This document shows positions 2,354 through 62,674 of a stretch of DNA of 64,000 nt, one piece after another (positions within the stretch are counted from its first letter, which is position 1; each line of letters starts with the position of its first letter). The notes under the pieces are model-generated. The model had not been told where the DNA came from, did not search any database, and saw only the letters and a list, made by a program, of their open reading frames with translations. The position numbers were made by a program, and so were the translations under genes. The stretch spans positions 395,870,001 to 395,934,000 of the forward strand of contig JBNRSN020000003.1 in NCBI GenBank assembly GCA_051313645.2, read 5' to 3'. This DNA comes from Centroscyllium fabricii (lineage: Eukaryota).

Positions 2354-3190
2354 GGGCCAGAATTTCCGGTGCCTCAAAGCAGATGCCCACAGAGATGCCC
2401 ACGAAAAATGCCCACTGATCCGAGATGCTCACGGATCCGAGATTTCTGATGCTGAGGGAGAAGGGCCCTCAGCATCAAACGCACAAGTGAGTTGCACCCA
2501 GAATTTGGGCTCCAAAAGGGTGCTTTTTTTTCTGTGATTCTGTGGGCAACGGAGCCCTGAGATGCACATGAAAAAAGCTGCAGTAACTCGTGCATCAGGG
2601 AGAGAGAAACGTTCTTAAACAAGGTAAGTTACTTTTTTACCTTTAATTTTAAGTTTTAACAGTTTTGGGGAGTAATGTAGCCAGATCGGTAGCGTTAAAT
2701 TTTTAAGTTAAAGTTAAAAAAAAAATAATTACAAATCAGATTTATGTTAATTTACCTGTTTCAAATCGCTAATTTTTAAAGTTAAATTTCTGAAATTTTT
2801 AACTATCTAGCTATTAAAAAATCTAAGATAAAAAATGGCAGAGACTTAACTAGCGTTTCTTCCTCTGAGAAGCTGCTGTGCCCGCGCTGCTCCCCGCTGA
2901 GTCTGTGAGTGCAGCTCTGCACGTCCCTGCTCTCACAAAGGTCCGACTCGGGATCTGTGCGCATTTTTTAATTTAAATTAGGGATCTGGGGGCGTTTTTT
3001 ATTTAAATTTGGGATCTGTGGGCGGGGCATACACTGCGCACCTAGCGTGGCTGGACTGCCACGTTGCGCACGAAGGGGGCGGAGCCGATCGGAAATCCAG
3101 AGCGTAAAAAAAGTCCGATGCTGGTGGGCTTCTTAAGTGCTCCGCCTGGTCCTAGTTGCCCACCAACCGGCAAACCCGAATTTCTGGCCC
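2354..3190. mobile_element. Harbinger-type MITE family A, copy A1 (837 bp)
   Basis: TIRs GGGCCAGAATTT / AATTTCTGGCCC, 3-bp TSD ATT on both sides. Homologous to 3597-4433 and 61767-62627. Confidence 0.88.
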
Positions 3191-3596
3191 ATTATATCTA
3201 TTTCTTATTGGGTAAAAATGTTTGTACATTTCAGCCACCTTTTGTTGCTTGTAGGAGCCCACCCCAGTATTGTGACTGCCTACCAATTTTTCACTTTTTA
3301 TTTTGGTCATTTTCCCTTTATTGTCTCCCTTCTAAACATGTACACTGTCCTTGGCTCACTCTGAGAAAGTCTGCAACCTAATATCCTTCAATACCTCTTG
3401 TTGAGGAGCCCAACACGAGACATATTAAGCAATGCAGGAAGGTATTTATTTCATAGCACTTCTCCTGTCTACCCACAAATATCCTTGGCTTAGAGAATAA
3501 TTTCACCATCTGGAGGAAGCCTGAGTATCAATGTCACTTGAGAATGGCTTTTGAATCTGGTTCTCCTAGTCAGGAGTAAATTGCTGTGCATTCAAT

Positions 3597-4433
3597 GGGC
3601 CAGATTTTCCTCTGCTCCAGAGGAGCTGCACACGCACGGAGGGGGGTCCGAAATGCCCCGTGGGTGTGCAGCACGGGGGATGCCCACGAACGGGAATTTC
3701 CTCTGCTGAGGGAGAAGGGCCCTCAGCATCAAACGCAGGAGTGAGTTGCACCCAGAATTTGCAATCCAAAAGGGTGATTTTTGGAGAGTGATTCTGTGTG
3801 CAACTGGCCCACAAGCTGCACCCGGGAAAACCAGTAGTAAACTCGTGCGTGAGGGACAAGATTTAGTTATTAAAGCAGGTAAGTTAATTTTTTAACTTTA
3901 ATTTTAATTTTTTACAGTTTTTGGGAGTAATGTGGCCAGATCGGTAGCGTTAAATTTTTAAGTTAAAGTTTTAAAAAAAAATGTACAAATCCGATTTTAA
4001 GTTAATTTACCTGTTTCAAATCGTTAATTTTTAAAGTTAAATTTCTGAAATTTTTAACTATCTAGCTATTAAAAAATCTAAGAGGAAAAAATGGCAGACT
4101 TACCTTGCGCTTCTTCCTCTGAGAAGCTGCTCTGCCCGCGCTGCTCCCCGCTGAGTCTGTGAGTGCAGCTCCGCACTTCCCTGCTCTCACAAAGGTCCGA
4201 CTCGGGATCTGTGTGCATTTTTGTATTTAAATTAGGGATCTGGGGTCGTTTTTATTTAAATTTGGGATCTGTGGGCGGGGCATACACTGCGCACCCAGCG
4301 TGGCTGGACTGCCACGAAGCGCAGGAACGGGGAGGAAAGTCAGGGAGCAACTTCTGTGCAATGTTGGTGCATGCGATAGGTGTCCGCAGGTTCCTAGCGC
4401 ACGCACTAACCTGCACAGAGGAAAACCTGGCCC
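3597..4433. mobile_element. Harbinger-type MITE family A, copy A2 (837 bp)
   Basis: 18-bp TIR GGGCCAGATTTTCCTCTG / CAGAGGAAAACCTGGCCC, TSD AAT/AAT. Confidence 0.9.
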
Positions 4434-5345
4434 AATATAATTTTTCCTATGATTACTAACTAACTCTGGCTTAACAGACTCAAGTTGTTAAACTACTGAA
4501 ACTTCAGGCATATTCTCCCGTAAGTAAGACACTTATCATTAAAGGCTCTGTCCCTGTTATGCTTAGAGTGTTTTGAGAAATTCCAGAATAAATTTTGGAT
4601 TATTGCACCTTCATATGTGAAAATTCTGGAATTCATCCATTCTGGTCCCAGCAGTTTGCAGCAATCGCGAATATCTTTAATCCAAATCTTCAAGATTATT
4701 GTGATAATTGTTATTTGCAATTCCTCCCCCCTCCCCGCTCTAATATCTTTCCTCAAGGGCTTTTGTCTCCAACACATCTGGGATAGCCCATAGTAGCTTG
4801 AGCCAGGCTCGAGCCGTTCGTCTGGCTACAACCCAAGTCGATATTATTAAAACAAATATACGAGCCATGGATGAACCACAAGACCACAGAAGGCTGGAGA
4901 GAGGGAGCGCTATCATTAGCGAGTTTGCTGATCAGATCACAGGGCTAGACGTTGTCTGGCTCCCACCTGTCGAATGCTCTTGGCTCAAGTGAGCAGGATC
5001 TGCACCAGCATTCATCGTCGACACACTTGGAAGTTCAAAAAGTTAAATGTGATAGTTGCCTCAGTTTACACATGGTAACAATGTGTTGAGATGTCAGCAT
5101 GATTCTTTAATATTCAGTGGCAACAAGAACACTGGGTGAGTGTAAGATATTGATTTTCTTTAACACTGATTCCTGCCAGGGTGTTTTATTCTGATAGTAG
5201 TAAAACAGGGTAATACAGCCACATCCAAACTCTCGGAGCCAAACGTGTGCACTGGGAGCTTTGCTCCAGCCCCATACAAAATACAAAAAACTGCCCCGGC
5301 TGATCGCAGCCAACCACCAAGCTGGGGCAAGCTGTATGTGTTCAA

Positions 5346-9900: not shown

Positions 9901-10650
9901 GGGCCAGAAATTAGGGGCCCATTGCGTGAGTACGCATTGGGTACTCACGCGTGGGCCCATCAGAATTGCCGGTTTCCAGCATGCACGCAAAACTGGCATT
10001 TCCGATCCCCTGAAAGAAGGGGTTGGGGTCGGAACGCGTTCGCGTGCGCGGGAGCGGGTGCGCAATGGAATTCCGATTTTTTTACAGCTTTTTATCAGGC
10101 TAAATATTGGAAAAATTTACGTCTCCTATTTTCAAGCGCAAAGACTGGTTTCTGCAGGTAAGTAGTGATTTAATTTAATTTAAGACATTTTTTCCACAGG
10201 TTTTACATTTTTAAATACTTTAAAGAAAGGTAAGTTGATTTTGAGCCCTGTTAAATACTTCAATTATTTTTTTCAAAATTTTTAATTTTTGTTTAAAATA
10301 GCTAATTTGTGTAATTGATAACTAATTTTAAAAATGTGATTTCAAAAAAATAATATTTTAAGATTTAGTGATGTTTTGGGGTTGCAGTATTCATAAGTTT
10401 GACAGGTCTTCCTGTCAAACTTACGAATGGAGCATTCTGTGCTCCGATTGGCTCTCCGCGGCCCACATGATCCCGCGCACTATCTCGCACTATCTTCGCC
10501 GCTCAACACCAGCATCACAGCGTGCCGGCACTTCAGGAGGTCCCAACATCAGAATACCATAAGGGTGCAATGATCAACGGCCGGCGCGGTCCATAAGCGT
10601 GGGTTGGAGGCTTGCACTCACGGGAAGCCTCCAACCTGAATTTTTGGGCC
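9901..10650. mobile_element. Harbinger-type MITE family B, copy B1
   Basis: TIRs GGGCCAGAAATT / AATTTTTGGGCC, 3' flank AAT (5' flank gct does not match). Homologous to 12801-13301 and 57163-57890. Confidence 0.85.
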
Positions 10651-10879
10651 AATATCTTATCCAAACCCAAGACTTACCCTGAATTCCCACAGCTTGACCT
10701 TAACTAATAGCATTTGATATGGAACTTTGTCAACTGCCTATTGGAATTCTCGGTTCAACATGTCACAGTCCATTTGGGATGTCACTCGTCAAAGAAGTCG
10801 AGGAGTTTGGTGAGGCAGCATCTTCAACTTCTCAATTCATGTTGACTATGTTTGACTTGGTTATTATTGCACAGGTAAT

Positions 10880-12800: not shown

Positions 12801-13301
12801 AGCCCAGAAATTCCGATCGCCCCGGGTGAGTACGCGCTGGGTACTTACCCGTCGGCCCATCTGAAGTGCCGGTTTCATGCGTGCACAGCACATGCACGCG
12901 AAACCGGCACTTCCGATCCCCTGAAAGAAGGGGTCAGGTGTCGCATTGTGTGTGTGGCAGCGGGTGCGCAATGCACTTGCGATTTTTTCCACAGGTTTTT
13001 ATCCGGGTAAGTAGGTTACGTCTCCTATTTTCAAGCGCAAAGACCCCTTTTCAGCAGGTAAGTGTTGAAATAATTCAATTTTAAAAAAATATTTCCACAG
13101 GTTTTTCATTTTTAAATACTTTAAAGAAAGGTAAGTTGATTTTTAGCCCCGTTAAAAACTTCAATACTTTTTTTCAAAATTTTTAATTTTTATTTAAATT
13201 GGCTAATTTATGTAATTGATAGTTATTTAAAAAAATGTGATTAAAAAAAAATGTATTTGAAGGTTTACTGAGGTTTTGGGGCTTGTAGTATTCATAAGTT
13301 T
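12801..13301. mobile_element. MITE family B, copy B2, right-truncated
   Basis: att|AGCCCAGAAATT start; colinear with B1 until it stops inside the left arm of the internal palindrome (ttcataagttt). Confidence 0.8.
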
Positions 13302-20523: not shown

Positions 20524-21550
20524 ATGGGAACCATTTATATCCTCTCATCCTGGTCCACAGAATCGGATGAAGAGCAGCCGTGGCAGCATCAGAACCAGGC
20601 ACAACAGCAACAGCAACAACAGGAGCAACAACTTTCTCCTCAGCCAGCTGATGATGCACAGGGCAGAGGCCATCAGTGCAGGGCTGCAACACCCCTCAGG
20701 AGATACCTCCAACACCGTATTTACAGGCAGAGGATGAGCTCCCTCAACATGATTGAGCAGCAGTACCAAAGCCTAGGCTGAGACTTCTGTGAGAGGTAGT
20801 CGCTGACATCTGCGCGATGCTGCACCAACACCTGGAGCCCAGAGAAGCGGGTGGCTACTCCATACCAGTGGCTGTCAAAGTCACCACCGCACTCAACTTC
20901 TTTGCTTTGGGCTCCTTCCAAGCATCATCAACAGACATTAGCGGCATCTCCCAGTTGGCCGCACACACTTGCATCACACAGGTTACCGCTGCCCTCTTTG
21001 CAAAGTCACACAATGACATCCACTTCTCCATGGTTGAAGCAAGTGTAACGGCGCGTGCAGTTGGCTTTGCAAATATGGTAGGCTTCCCAAGGGTGCAGGG
21101 CGTTGTAGACTGCACACATGTGGCCATTAGAGCACCCCATCACAATCCAGCTGTATTTGTCAACCATAGGGGATTCCACTCCCATAATGTCCAGCTGGTG
21201 TGTAACCACAGAAAGAACCTTTGCATGTGTGCGTCAAATTCCCTGGCAATTGCCATGACTCGTTCATCCTGCGGCAGTCTACTGTGCCTCAGCTCTTCAA
21301 TCCACCAACCCAACTTTCCAGATGGCTACTTGGAGACAAGGGCTATTCCCTGAAGACGTGGCTATTGACACCGATGAGGAGGCCATCAAACGAAGCTGAG
21401 GAGTGGTACAATGTGAGCCATGTTTCCACCAGGAACATCATTGAGCAAACCATCAGCTTGCTCAAAATGCGATTCAGATGCCTCGACAGATCTGGTGGAC
21501 CCCTACAGTATGCACCAGCCAGGGTCTCCAGAATCATTGTGGTCTGTTGT
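20524..21550 (+). pseudogene. Harbinger DDE transposase (HARBI1-like family), frameshifted and 3'-truncated
   Basis: [80 protein letters not shown]; poly-Q N-terminus. Confidence 0.92.
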
Positions 21551-22124
21551 CAAATGGGGCGCAACCCAATTTTTCCCCCTTTACCTTTTTGAGCATCATT
21601 GGTCCAATGTTGAACTCAAACTAGTTTTATTACATGTTAGATCTTCTGATGAAGGTCTCTTCACATCCAAGTGTGGATGGCCTGTTAACATATGTGGTTC
21701 AATGGATGCATTTATTAATGTATCCCTATGCACTGACCCTATGACATGGAAATGAATTAACTTCACATTTAATTTGGCTGCAGATTTTCTGGAAAATTGT
21801 TCAAGCAGACCAAAGCAGGAAACACTCCTGCCTCAAATATTGAAAACTTGATCAATCTTTGAACCCAGCGTTCTCTACTTTCTCCTTCCCCATCCTTTAC
21901 TCCTTGTTGGATTGTGCATTCTCTTACCAAACAGATTTACCAAATGTTCTTTCCAGGGGCAGCCTCTTCTCTTACCCATCTCTTACTAATTGATGTACGT
22001 ACTTGACTGTCAGGCAAGCTAGGGTTAGCTTTGTGTTGTATAAGTGGCTTAATTCCTGCTTGTTATGCCTATTTTCTATACTATGTTCACTTTGTACATG
22101 TATATATTTTTCTTTATTGTTATT

Positions 22125-52890: not shown

Positions 52891-53283
52891 ATTGATTCAT
52901 GAGCTACTTGAAAGAGACTTTCTTATTCCAGATCATCATCATCAGCAGATTAATCATCAAGCTAAAGATCTTGTCAAACTGTTCTCAATGGCCGCAATTT
53001 CGCCTACTGAGGCAGGCTCCGTGCGGCTGAGGTAGGTGGTGGGTTGTGACCCCGCTCCCGGCTCCATCCCGCTCTGTGAGAAGAATTTTCCATTAATTGG
53101 GCTTGTTAAGCCTGCCCTGTGAGGTTCCCAGCCAATTAAAAGGAGGCGGATCTGATGACATCATTTGATGACGCATCATCAGCCAGTTTCCTTAAAGAGG
53201 CCATGTCCACATTCATTTTGACAGTTGTGCTGTCAGTGTTCTACAGCATTGAGGTGCTGCAAACACTGACAAGCACGGCACAA

Positions 53284-53496
53284 ATGTACAAGGCTGGACC
53301 CAGGCTCTCCCTTGACTCCTTCCATGTACTTATGGAGGGAGTCACAGTACGCAGGGAGATTCTCTTCCAATTCAAACGGGCGGAAGACACCTCCCCAGGA
53401 GACCAATGCAGCCTGGTTGCAAATTGCACAGGAGGGCACAAGCAGGGATGTTGTTAGGGTCCCTGGCTGCAGTGGCGCAAACCTTTCAATAATCTC
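53284..53496 (+). pseudogene. Harbinger Myb/SANT-like DNA-binding domain exon, frameshifted
   Basis: PRLSLDSFHVLMEGVTVRREILF / SNGRKTPPQETNAAWLQIAQE..S / WLQWRKPFNNL. Confidence 0.8.
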
Positions 53497-54750
53497 AGGA
53501 GATCACAAAACATTACTGCAAAGCCACACTCAACCTCATCCTGCTGTGCCACACTCACATCTCCATCACTCTGCCTCCCCTACCCTACTCCTGCACATCC
53601 TTACACACACCACCTTACCTTGCACCTCCACCCATCCCTCTCTCTCTATCTACATCATCACATCCCCATCTCACTAGCCACCCCTCACACTCACCCTCAT
53701 CCTAGTCCAATCATAGCAACTAACAATGCACAAGGGTAGGCACTTGGGTGTTTTATCCAATGTTCATGTAAATTATCTGTTGATGTGCTGCCAAGCATTG
53801 AAATGTTTATTCTCAACACTTTCTGTTCTTGGACAGTTGTGTGTGCACCTTTGGAAGTGGCTTAGTGAGTTGCAGTGAATGGTGGGACATAACGGTACCC
53901 CCCACAATGGTGGAGTGTGAAAGGAATGGCTTGGGCATTGTAGGGATACTGTATGGTGCTGGTGTGGGGTGGTGCCAACCTGTCGCACCATGTGGCAGCC
54001 AGGATGTACAGTGTCAAGTGAAGTAAATCTGGCCATGCTGAGACCATCCCTGGCCTCCCAGGCAGCAATGTGGTCGGGTGCTGATGCCCTGTGTCCTGTG
54101 CAGCATCAGGTGATTGTGGAGCAGGTTGGTGTGGATGTTGGTGCTGCTGGTGTGCCCAGTGATGTTGCTGATGATCGTGGTGGGATTCTGAGGACGAAGG
54201 TGTGATTTTTTCAAGGGCACTGATGCTAACGGAATAGATGGCAGCTGAAGTTGAGATAACAGAAGCGATCTGTCAATGGTGAGAGAGGTTGCTCCAAAGA
54301 GGTGACAGTGGATAGAAAGTTTACTCCAAACACTTCCAAACTGCATAAAGCTGAAAAGAGTATGAAGGTTTCAGCTTTTCAGATTGGAAAGTGAACAGCT
54401 GTGAAAGTGTAGCTTTTATATGACTTTTGCAGCTGTCAACTATTCAGAGGGTTGGAGAGTCACTGACAACCTGACCTACCGACCTACTGACCTACTGACC
54501 TGACGTGATCCCCAAGTGGTGGGAACCTTGTGAAAAAGCTGGTAAAATGGTCAGTACATGGTAAAATGGTGTTTAAGTACCTTTTAACAAGCTCTTAAGT
54601 GTTTGAACTGGCTCACTTGCCACTTGCTGTCGGCTCTGTAGAGTGCAGACAGACCCGACACTTGGGAAACTGTCATGGAGACGGGTTGAGAGTGGGATCC
54701 CGACCCGCTGTCAATCATTTCGATTTTGATAGCGGACCTGCCTCTGTGAG

Positions 54751-56841
54751 CATACCGGTTTGGCATAAAAATAAACCTAAAAAGGTGACTCAGCCGTGGA
54801 TAACAAGGGAAATTAGGGACAACATAAAATCCAAAAAAAGGACATATCAATTGGCCAAAAAAAGCACCAGACCTGAAGATTGGGAGCAGTTCAGGATACA
54901 GCAAAGGAGGACAAAGGGATTAATCAAGAGGGGGAAAATAGATTACGAAAGTAAGCTTGCGGCAAACATAAAAACCGACTGCAAAATCTTTTATAGGTAT
55001 ATCAGGAGGAAAAGATTGGTAAAATCCCAAGTCGGATTCAGGGGAATATATAATGGGAAATAAGGAAATGGCAGACCAATTAAATTCATATTTTGGTTCT
55101 GTCTTCACAAAGGAGGACACAAATAACCTCCCTGGGATATCGGGAAACATGGGGACTAATGCAAGGGAGGAGCTGACAAAAATCAGTATTTCTAAGGATA
55201 TGGTGTTGAGGAAGTTGAAGGGATTGAAGGCCGACAAATCCCCAGGGCCTGATAAGCTACATCCTAGGCTACTTAAGGAGGTGGCCCTAGAGATAGTAGA
55301 TGCCTTAATGATCATTTTCAGGAACTCGATAGACTCAGGAACAGTACCCATGGATTGGAGGGTAGCAAATGTTACCCCACTATTTAAAAAAGGGGGTAGA
55401 GAAAAAGCAGGGAATTATAGACCAGTAAGCCTTACATCAGTAGTGGGCAAAATGTTAGAGTCCATTATTAAGGATGTAATAGCGGAGCACTTGACAAATA
55501 GGGACGGGATCGGACAGAGTCAACATGGATTTACAAAAGGTAAATCGTGCTTGACTAATCTATTGGAATTCTTTGAGGAAGTAACAGGTAAAATAGATGC
55601 GGGAGAGCCAGTAGATGTGGTGTACCTTGACTTCCAGAAAGCCTTTGATAAGATCCCACATAAAAGATTAGCATGCAAAATCGAGGCTCATGGGATTGGG
55701 GGCAATGTATTGACATGGATAGAGAACTGGCTGGCAGATAGAAAACAGAGAGTTGGAATAAACGGCTCATTTTCTGAGTGGCAGGCGGTGACTAGTGGGT
55801 TGCCGCAGGGATCTGTCCTGGGACCCCAGCTGTTCACAATATATATTAATGATCTGGACCAGGGAATTGGATGCAACATCTCCAAATTTGCAGATGACAC
55901 TAAACTAGGAGGGGGGGTGGGCTCTGAAGAGGATGTCAGGAAGCTCCAGTGCGATTTGGACAAGTTGGGGGAATGGGCGGACACATGGCAAATGCACTAT
56001 AATGTGGATAAATGTGAGGTTATCCACTTTGGGGGCAAAAACTGGAGGGCAGATTATTATTTAAATGGCAATAGATTGGGAGATGGGGAAGTGCAGAGAA
56101 ACCTGAGTGTTCTTGTGCACCAGTCACTGAGGGTGAGCATGCAGGTGCAACAGGCGGTTAAGAAGGCAAATGGTATGTTGGCCTTCATATCAAGAGAGTT
56201 CGAGTATAGGAATAAGGATACCTTACTACAGTTGTACAAGGCACTGGTGAGACCACACACCTTGAGTATTGTGTACAGTTTTGGTCGCCTCATCTGAGGA
56301 ACGATGTTCTTGCCATGGAAGGAGTGCAGCGGCGATTCACCAGGATGATACCTGGAATGGCAGGAATGACCTACGAGGAGAGATTGTGTAGTTTGGGCTT
56401 GTACTCGCTGGAGTTTAGAAGATTGAGAGGAGATCTCATCGAAACATATAAAATTCTGACAGGCCTGGACAGGTTAAATTCAGAAAGAATGTTTCCAATG
56501 GTGGGGGAGTCCAGAACCAGGGGCCACAGTCTAAGGATAAGGGGTAAACCATTTAGGACAGATATGAGGAAGAATTTCTTCACCCAGAGAGTGGTGAACC
56601 TTTGGAATTCCTTGCCACAGAGGGCAGTGGAGGCCAGTTCATTAAATATATTTAAGAGGGAATTGGATATAATTCTTCAGGCTAAAGGGATTAAGGGTTA
56701 CGGAGAGAAGGCGGGGATGGGGTACTGAACTTGAAAGATCAGCCATGATCTCAGCCAAAGATCAGCCATGATCTCATTGAATGGCGGAGCAGGCTCGAAG
56801 GGCCGAATGGCCTACTCCTGCTCCTATCTTCTATGTTTCTA
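54751..56841 (+). mobile_element. CR1 LINE, 5'-truncated, frameshifted ORF2
   Basis: ORFs 54599-55063 (3' part), 55053-56297 and 56315-56728; probable TSD TGTGAG (54745-54750 / 56842-56847). Confidence 0.95.
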
Positions 56842-57162
56842 TGTGAGGGCCGGCAAGATTCCGGCCAATATGTTTACATTAAGGCAGTTATGTCATTGCA
56901 CTTCTAATGGAAATCTCCTTTTGCAGCATCAAGAAAGTTCTCAGCACTATCAGACCATGGACCTGTAGGTTGCTCTTTACTCCAGGTATTGAGCAACAAT
57001 ATTGAAGGGACAACTCTCGAAAACTGCAACTAATATGTCCTTTCATGTAATGCAGGTTGTGAGATTAATAATGAGACCTGTCCAAAGGTAGTCCTGTAGA
57101 GGATTCTGGTCTCCAAGTTTTCCTTTGTCTTTGTATAGGAGCTCTGTGAGTTCTATAGTAAT

Positions 57163-57890
57163 GGACCAGATATTAGGCCCGCACGCGCGAGTACGAACGG
57201 GGTACTCACGTGTGCGGCCATCCGAAGTGCAGGTTGCCGGCATACACCGCGCATGCGCGCAGAACTGGCACTTCCGATCCGGGGCCTGAAGCGGTCAGGA
57301 GCCGGAGCGCGTTGGCCTGCACAGCAGGAGGTGCGCAGTGAACTTGCGATTATTTTCCAAGTTTTTTAAGGGTAAGTATTTAAATATTTACGGCTCCTAT
57401 TTTCAAGCGCAAAGAGTGGATTTCATCAGGTAAGTCTTTATTTTATTCAATTTAAGTATTTTTATTCACAGGTTTTTCATTTTTAGGCCCGTTAAAAACT
57501 TAAAATATTTTTTCAAAATGTTTAATTTTTGTTTAAAAAACTAATTTATGTGATTGATAGTACTTTTAAAAAATGTGATGGTTTTCAAAAATTTATTTTA
57601 AGGTTTAGTGTGTTTTTGGGCTCTAGTATTTCATAAGTTTGACAAATCTTTCTGTCAAACTTATGAATGGAGAATTCTTTGCTCTGATTGGTTCTCTGCG
57701 GATCTTGTGATCCCACGGGAAGCCTCGCACTATCTTCGCCCTTCAGTTGCACCAACGCGGTGCGGGGCCCTGTCAGTAAGCTAGAGGATCGGGATTTCAG
57801 CTGAGTGAAATCCAGAACGGCAGGTGAGCTCCGTGAGTGCACTTTGGAGGCTTGCACTCGCGGCAAGACTCCAACCCTAATTTCTGGCCC
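57163..57890. mobile_element. MITE family B, copy B3
   Basis: GGACCAGATATTAGG / CCTAATTTCTGGCCC, TSD AAT/AAT. Confidence 0.88.
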
Positions 57891-61515: not shown

Positions 61516-61766
61516 GATTTAGACATCCAGCCGTAAGGTGAGCTAAATAAGATTGATTTTCAAGGATCCTAAATAGTTTCTGTCTGTTATTGGGCTAAAT
61601 CTGTATAATATTATCGAATGTTCCATTGGAAGGATTATGTTACCATTGGCAGTAAATTTGAATGTGGTTGATTGGAAAATTACATTCTTTTACCTTGATA
61701 TCAAATGCTCATTTATTTACCTCCAAAATGCCCAAAAGATCCTCCATAGCTTAGTTTCACATTAAT

Positions 61767-62627
61767 GGGCCAGAAATTCGGGTGCCTAGTACCACTTGCA
61801 CCCGCACGGAGGGGGGCCAATATGCCCCGTGCGATGATCGCACGGGGCATGCCCATGGATCGGAGCTTTCCGATGCTGAGGGAGAAGAGGCCTCAGCATG
61901 GAACGCACAAAATAATTGCACCCAAAAATCCCGATGTTTTTGGGTGTGATTCTGTGCGTTCATCTGTGGGCAAATGGGCTTGGAGCTGCACGGGAAAAAA
62001 GGAGTCGTAACCTGTGCGTTGGTGAGAGCAGTGCGTTCCTAAACAAGGTAATTGACTTTTTTACCTTTAATTTTAAGTTTTATCAATTTTTTGGAGTAAT
62101 GTGGCCAGATCGCTATCATTAAATTTAGCTTTTAAAGTTTTTTAAAAAAAATTAAAAATCCGAATTTCAATTGTTATACCTATTCCAAATCGCTTATTTT
62201 TAAATTTAAAGTTCTGAAATTTTTAACTATTTCCTTAATTTAAAAAACTAAGAGAAAATATCGCTAAGACTTACCGACATTGAAAAGCTGCTCTGGCCGC
62301 GGTGCTCACTGCCGAGTCTGTGGGTGCAGCAGTGGGCGTGGTCCTAATAACGGCCTCACGTCCCTGCTCTCTAAGAAGTCCGACTGTGAAGCAGGGGGCA
62401 TTTTTTATTTAATTTAGGGATCTGTGGGCGGGGCATCACTGCTACGCACGCAGGACGGCAGCGCATATACAGCGCTCCTAGCGTGGCTGGACAGCCACGC
62501 AGCCCAGGAACGGGGCGGAGCCAACAGGAAGTTCTGGCCATAAAAAATGTGCGATTCTGGTGCGGTGCTAAAGGTGTCCGCATGGTCCTTGCACCCGCAC
62601 AAACCAGCAGACTGGAATTTCTGGCCC
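61767..62627. mobile_element. MITE family A, copy A3
   Basis: TIR GGGCCAGAAATTC / GAATTTCTGGCCC; flanks aat/att. Confidence 0.88.
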
Positions 62628-62674
62628 ATTATGTGTGATTCAAAGTTTCTGCGTGTGTTAAGAATATGTAATAT

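Follow-up and report, generated by a model that had tools for sequence, protein, structure and literature searches.

Among the closest described counterparts of the element analysed here are the mPing/Tourist MITEs, and mPing is known to be a deletion derivative of Ping (PMC9921582). Related long elements were sorted into PHIS groups by Han et al. (2015; PMC4482050), among them PIF/Harbinger with a TWA target, Pangu with an ANT target, and NuwaI with a CWG target and a Myb/SANT protein. In vertebrates, Harbingers and their short derivatives have been reported (PMC8437027, PMC9179366), and a few insertions of the sea krait element Harbinger-Snek reach mRNAs (PMC8437027). Harbingers are listed among shark repeats, and DNA transposons account for 1.58% of the genome of the grey reef shark (PMC12498223); in the elephant shark, Harbingers were not detected (PMC9179366). 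The MITE family described below may already be included in the repeat tables of published shark genomes. Among titles and abstract openings, with few subscription journals covered, we found no vertebrate Harbinger MITE with both first-intron donors.

We analysed a stretch of 64,000 nucleotides from Centroscyllium fabricii (the window), which contains three related MITE copies, A1, A2 and A3. The features of A2 and the positions of its sister copies are as follows:

3597..4433, plus strand: MITE copy A2, 837 bp, a non-coding, non-autonomous derivative of a two-gene Harbinger-type element.
3594..3596 (left) and 4434-4436 (right), plus strand: A2 target duplication AAT, assigned from the sequence and from 3-bp overlaps at empty-site paralogues.
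3597..3614, plus strand: left terminal inverted repeat of A2, 18 bp, 17/18 complementary to 4416-4433.
4416..4433, minus strand: right terminal inverted repeat of A2, pairing with 3597..3614.
3597..3878, plus strand: left arm of A2, homologous to the transposase-upstream end, with a predicted promoter and non-coding exon 1.
3704..3729, plus strand: imperfect palindrome TGCTGAGGG...CCTCAGCA, conserved and common to the MITE and long elements (L121, L123, L127); a candidate subterminal cis site.
3876..3884, plus strand: left donor CAG|GTAAGT; its GT corresponds by homology to the one at the start of a predicted 5'-UTR intron in the transposase gene.
3879..4103, no strand: AT-rich core, 23% GC, probably a fusion of the first parts of the transposase and Myb introns.
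4005..4013, minus strand: middle donor-like site CAG|GTAAAT, near the putative deletion join, not conserved across subfamilies.
4098..4106, minus strand: right donor AAG|GTAAGT; its GT corresponds by homology to the one at the start of a predicted 5'-UTR intron in the Myb-like gene.
4104..4433, minus strand: right arm of A2, which shares homology with the end lying upstream of the Myb-like gene and has a GC box at 4273-4280.
2354..3190, plus strand: sister copy A1, flanked by ATT/ATT; left donor intact, right donor dead (2844-2852).
61767..62627, plus strand: sister copy A3, with non-matching flanks AAT (61764-61766) and ATT (62628-62630).

The family shares with the mPing/Tourist MITEs (PMC9921582, PMC4561436) the character of a short non-coding deletion derivative of a transposase-plus-Myb element, repeats starting with GG, a 3-bp duplication and a high copy number. 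Unlike them, it resides in a vertebrate, measures 0.84 kb, uses an AWT instead of a TWA target, keeps both predicted first exons and donors of convergent parents, and has non-matching duplications in about a third of cases. By description, it also resembles Harbinger-Snek of sea kraits, which has likewise expanded in a vertebrate and has many variants that lack proteins but retain the ends; the available part of that account does not mention retained first-intron donors (PMC8437027). A DDE transposase, a second ORF, a 3-bp duplication and long elements of ~4-5 kb are common to the PHIS groups and the system studied here (PMC4482050). The AWT target is a subset of the ANT target of Pangu; however, the second ORF of Pangu has no known motif, whereas the one found here encodes a Myb/SANT protein (PMC4482050). 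Compared by target and ORF features, no single PHIS group fits on both. In its mode of operation, the MITE resembles a Tourist-type element of the PIF/Harbinger (PHIS) superfamily in the broad sense; it is an ordinary mini-transposon, i.e., a real feature with an ordinary cause.

A search of the 7.2-Gb genome with a left-arm 26-mer from the palindrome region (3704..3729) returned 19,009 exact hits, compared with 0 for the reversed control. The copy number is at least 19,009; the copies have the ends GGGCCAGA and a 3-bp AWT target duplication. A 27-mer from the 5' end of A2 had 1,701 exact hits. Loci were fetched around most of the first 100 listed 26-mer hits, and 82 of the 96 hits inside them were complete MITE-sized elements with both ends (0.68-0.90 kb, 16 clusters). 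The remaining 14 were truncated or interrupted copies, or members of a second, independent deletion derivative of ~1.05 kb, in which ~580 nt remain from the left end and ~300 nt from the right (L157, L173, L184). A1, A2 and A3 represent three subfamilies, each with 40/40 scored genome matches at 95-100%; those of A2 were all full length at 96-100%. The copies have diverged by only ~1-3%. Terminal inverted repeats, a short uniform length, a high copy number and a target duplication evident from empty sites were thus all found, as befits a MITE.

Copies cluster and nest, A1 and A2 being separated by a gap of 406 nt (window 2354-4433), and further clustered or nested copies were seen at L173, L228 and L133. 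At locus L042, one MITE is inserted in the core of another family member. A2 itself is a mosaic, with its first 120 nt 87% like the L126/L128 family and its interior 93-100% like A1. The alignment of A2 3597-3740 with L126:326-468 and L128:267-410 assigns its outer end to another long family than its interior. The mosaic structure points to end swapping between families. The possibility that the two arms form a single long inverted repeat was ruled out, the match being limited to the terminal 13-18 bp.

At 36 of 55 informative loci, comparison with paralogous empty sites revealed overlaps of 3 bp, which ruled out a Spy-like insertion without duplication. The insertion target is AWT inside a loose palindrome. 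In a set of 217 copies with intact GGG...CCC ends (loci L001-L090, L141-L230 and L261-L350), the 3-nt flanks were identical in 140 and non-identical in 77. AWT was present on both sides in 148 of the 217 copies, which is not the TWA of strict PIF/Harbinger elements. The middle base differed in 36 of these 148 pairs, compared with ~1% predicted from the internal A-T exchange rate of 0.56%; 19 further copies had one canonical flank and another differing at two or three positions. Comparison with empty-site paralogues showed one duplicate replaced at a same-length junction in L229, L324, L027 and L294, and four extra bases beside the terminal repeat in L015 and L200. The mismatch rate was uneven, with 11/27 for the closest A2 copies, 2/24 for A1, 4/28 for A3 and 12/67 for the unbiased A2 set.

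Point mutation is far too rare to produce these mismatches (0.56% per site), mosaic ends showed no enrichment (7/57 mismatched versus 23/139), and longer inverted copying of the other flank did not exceed the null. A tentative and rather improbable explanation, drawn by analogy with piggyBac, is that the transposase carries donor-site bases on the ends. Donor bases kept as overhangs by the piggyBac end chemistry (PMC7351741) would yield non-matching duplications; piggyBac, however, belongs to a superfamily unrelated to the Harbinger-type MITE. The donor TSD of mPing had no influence on new insertions, 45/46 of which were in TTA/TAA (PMC4561436). Variable stagger, repair synthesis and an assembly artefact are other candidate causes. 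Non-matching duplications in genomic copies were the main subject of none of the titles and abstract openings covered, which included few subscription journals. Should the mismatched duplications prove to be true insertion products, they would bear on how Harbinger transposases cut their ends.

Genome searches with PF13359 and PF13873 returned 72,583 first-look transposase candidates and 50,744 first-look candidates, respectively. Among the 30 transposase loci listed, 9 match the MITE left arm. Twenty of the 30, picked from the arm-carrying cluster, were extended, and at 16 of these 20 a Myb-like gene is convergent with the transposase gene. The long relatives encode a DDE_Tnp_4 transposase (PF13359, E 6e-41) and a Myb/SANT protein (PF13873, E 1e-13), and complete long elements of 4.8-5.2 kb with the MITE terminal repeats were recovered at L124 (4,878 bp), L125, L127 and L129. 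The identity between the MITE left arm and the left ends of long elements is 70-86%. A direct parent was sought among the 20 transposase and 30 Myb loci and none was found there, the best long relatives being only ~70-90% like the MITE arms. An autonomous DDE_Tnp_4 partner that shares the ends, together with a Myb/SANT second gene, is what PIF/Harbinger (PHIS) elements in the broad sense possess. Thus, the link to a two-gene, convergent Harbinger drawn in the preliminary description was borne out by arms that match long elements and by the gene order at 16/20 loci.

That description had located the convergent gene pair in the remnant at 52990-56866, an element with GGCCG ends and relatives in L228, L344 and L290. 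There, we detected only a decayed Myb-like stretch at 53296-53517 (plus strand; best tblastn E 7e-7). Pfam on the six frames of 52990-54750 and a transposase search of the remnant gave no hit, so the convergent layout is not demonstrated at this place; it was seen at the other loci mentioned above. Positions ~54751-56850 inside the remnant are a 2.1-kb LINE-like repeat that recurs elsewhere in the window and that we take to be a CR1-type LINE. A broken Harbinger-type transposase remnant at 20775-21556 (plus strand; PF13359, E 4e-23) belongs to a family other than that of the long relatives of the MITE. The window further holds another MITE family, which shares the terminal repeat of A1, A2 and A3 (9901-10651, about 12826-13301 and 57163-57890) and has many copies in the fetched loci and co-oriented plus-strand donors at 10155 and 10227, at 13055 and 13128, and at 57427.

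Two CpG-rich arms, each ending in an inward-facing splice donor, had been described for the MITE. Both CAG|GTAAGT at 3876-3884 (plus strand) and AAG|GTAAGT at 4098-4106 (minus strand) are present, and the right-arm GC box lies at 4273-4280. The third proposed donor, CAG|GTAAAT at 4005-4013 (minus strand), exists in A2 but is found in only 41 of 82 copies; 29 of the 82 read TAG|GTATAG at this position instead. CpG richness applies to the right arm of A2 (obs/exp 0.70) and not to the left arm (0.53, with a window average of 0.54). The left donor of A1 at 2621-2629 reads AAG|GTAAGT, and the A3 sites read AAG|GTAATT at 62045-62053 and TCG|GTAAGT at 62269-62277. The A1 site at 2750-2758, listed there as an equivalent site, turned out to be the homologue of the middle site and not of the right donor; the true right-donor position at 2844-2852 is TAG|TTAAGT, its GT lost. 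MAG|GTRAGT on both strands occurred in 0.03% of 20,000 first-order Markov resamplings of the element, and the window contains 13 MAG|GTRAGT sites versus 2.2 expected. The left and right donors of A2 are, with a chance expectation of 0.03%, real signals.

To trace these signals, we turn to the long elements. The left 400 nt of the MITE are collinear with their left end. Of 10 long elements that bear the arm, 7 show a GT aligned exactly with the left donor GT of the MITE, and in the remaining 3 a GTAAGT occurs ~23 nt beyond that column. The left donors of the long elements (ACG|GTAAAA type) are weaker than that of the MITE. A polypyrimidine tract and an AG lie 7-21 nt before the transposase ATG, ~0.6-0.7 kb downstream of the left GT. 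On the right side, the MITE read inward aligns collinearly with the Myb end of the long elements, where the donor position holds GT in 8, TT in 4 and GG in 7 of 19 arm-bearing copies. AAG|TTAAGT occurs at the Myb-side donor in the group L125, L129, L136 and L140, and AAG|GGACGG in a close cluster on small contigs (L246-L254, L259), which comprises six of the seven GG copies. The TT and GG groups have either lost the intron donor or, in the case of the cluster only, contain sequence errors. Most copies have an AG 5 nt before the Myb ATG, 0.3-0.55 kb past the right donor site, and, among the long elements in which the spacing was measured, most have a GC box 80-83 nt ahead of the donor site. The AT-rich core is collinear with ~120 nt of the predicted left intron and ~60 nt of the predicted right intron.

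Judged from this anatomy, each donor GT would open a 5'-UTR intron that ends at the AG just before the ATG, with predicted lengths of ~0.6-0.7 kb on the transposase side and 0.3-0.55 kb on the Myb side. Contigs from three further sets, aligned with the MITE, showed no junction at either donor (one contig ends at 3883, where a repeat is skipped), and those of two of these sets, one with only 3 contigs, showed none at the predicted introns of L124; this outcome weighs neither for nor against splicing. Since the donors align with the GTs of these predicted introns, the MITE probably derives from a deletion with one breakpoint in each first intron. The inward orientation of the donors is explained if the arms, as is likely, represent the promoter and first-exon ends of convergent genes. 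We therefore consider, with a probability of roughly 0.85, that the MITE arose by internal deletion of a two-gene Harbinger with breakpoints in both predicted first introns, and that the donors drift as relics. In such a convergent element, a promoter followed by a non-coding first exon and its donor would have faced inward at each end. A deletion ending in both first introns would remove the two coding regions, keep the terminal and subterminal cis sequences and fuse two intron starts into the AT-rich core, which would explain why each arm ends in an inward donor. With the ends needed in cis preserved, the short element could be mobilised by the proteins of its parents and reach tens of thousands of copies, as in the case of mPing (PMC9921582). 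The donors would be carried along and, after insertion, mutate at the background rate.

The last point was examined in several sets of copies. An unbiased set of 78 A2 copies was selected by the first 30 nt alone, 12 of 90 hits being dropped as they did not have the right end. The donors were intact in 76/78 and 77/78 copies. Changes affected 3/311 positions of the donor GTs and 103/8946 at other GT/AC sites (p=0.52), and 21/1323 positions of the donor 9-mers versus 83/6043 of the flanks (p=0.77). In 158 partly overlapping copies from 10 groups, the 9-mers showed 42/2772 changes versus 41.7 expected, and the donor GTs 5 versus 9.5 expected (p=0.09). For the intronic hexamers, a set of 68 unbiased copies yielded 10 changes versus 18 expected from the whole element (p=0.03), with the 40-nt flanks equally low (87 versus 112). 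The expectation that the donors are better conserved than their neighbours was thus not confirmed. Strong family-wide selection on the donors is excluded; weak selection, or a few co-opted copies, lies below the reach of the tests. With ~250 of at least 19,009 copies examined, a few co-opted copies would be missed.

Among the alternatives, the one that fares best assumes that source copies keep the donor region for the benefit of the MITE itself, either as it overlaps sequences required in cis for transposition or as transcription and U1 binding keep the copies open. This reading is compatible with the deletion-derivative origin, and internal sequences of mPing are known to modulate transposition (PMC9921582). 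Across the majority sequences of nine subfamilies, the right GTAAGT was unchanged in 9/9 despite indels and the left one changed once; per column, the core had 0.43 changes between subfamilies, compared with 0.75-0.89 in the arms. The constancy of the donors reached, however, p values of 0.07 against whole-element window pairs and 0.14 against the core, the arms hold longer invariant runs elsewhere, and the swapping of outer ends between families also makes the arms seem faster than the core. We regard retention for the element's own benefit as unlikely.

A different role was envisaged in the preliminary description, namely that the MITEs may be portable two-way promoter, first-exon and donor cassettes that could start spliced transcripts or trap exons. 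In this reading, many copies would work in such a way on host transcripts, and their use would keep the donors intact. The arms are indeed likely promoter and first-exon ends, and the donors are near-perfect and intact in nearly all A2 copies. Harbinger genes are transcribed in fish, more so in testis (PMC9179366), a few sea krait mRNAs include Harbinger-Snek insertions (PMC8437027), and the retention signals mentioned above, although weak (p=0.03 for the hexamers, 0.07-0.14 for the subfamilies), point in the same direction. Against a working cassette stand the missing excess conservation of the donors after insertion and the decay of CpGs in both arms. Transitions at CpG (C>T, G>A) amounted to 271/5848 versus 169/22947 at other C/G in the 78 A2 copies, and to 565/12687 versus 325/48886 in the 158 copies, alike in both arms. 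This 6-7x faster decay suggests that the arms do not behave as unmethylated, CpG-island-like sequences. DNA methylated in the germ line is expected to lose CpGs by fast transitions, and protected CpG islands are not. Most copies are probably methylated in the germ line, the donors being passengers. Moreover, at a divergence of only ~1-3%, intact donors are expected without selection, and an inward donor could presumably reach a host acceptor only by splicing over the opposite arm. Widespread use as cassettes is therefore very unlikely. A coincidental origin of the donor 9-mers, at the border of AT-rich sequence, fits the middle site, lost in half of the copies, but is extremely improbable for the other two, given the value of 0.03% for both strands and their equal position in long elements upstream of an acceptor plus ATG.

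It is quite unlikely, though worth stating, that a sizeable minority of copies escapes methylation in gonad or embryo, fires both inherited promoters and splices into host exons either way. If true, a single deletion made a Harbinger a two-way first-exon seed across a vertebrate genome. The promoter-like arms and splice donors of these MITEs are likely traced to the 5'-UTR introns of the parent genes, and a large Harbinger-type expansion is documented by the 72,583 first-look transposase candidates. The ~40,000 intact donors represent raw material for occasional co-option.
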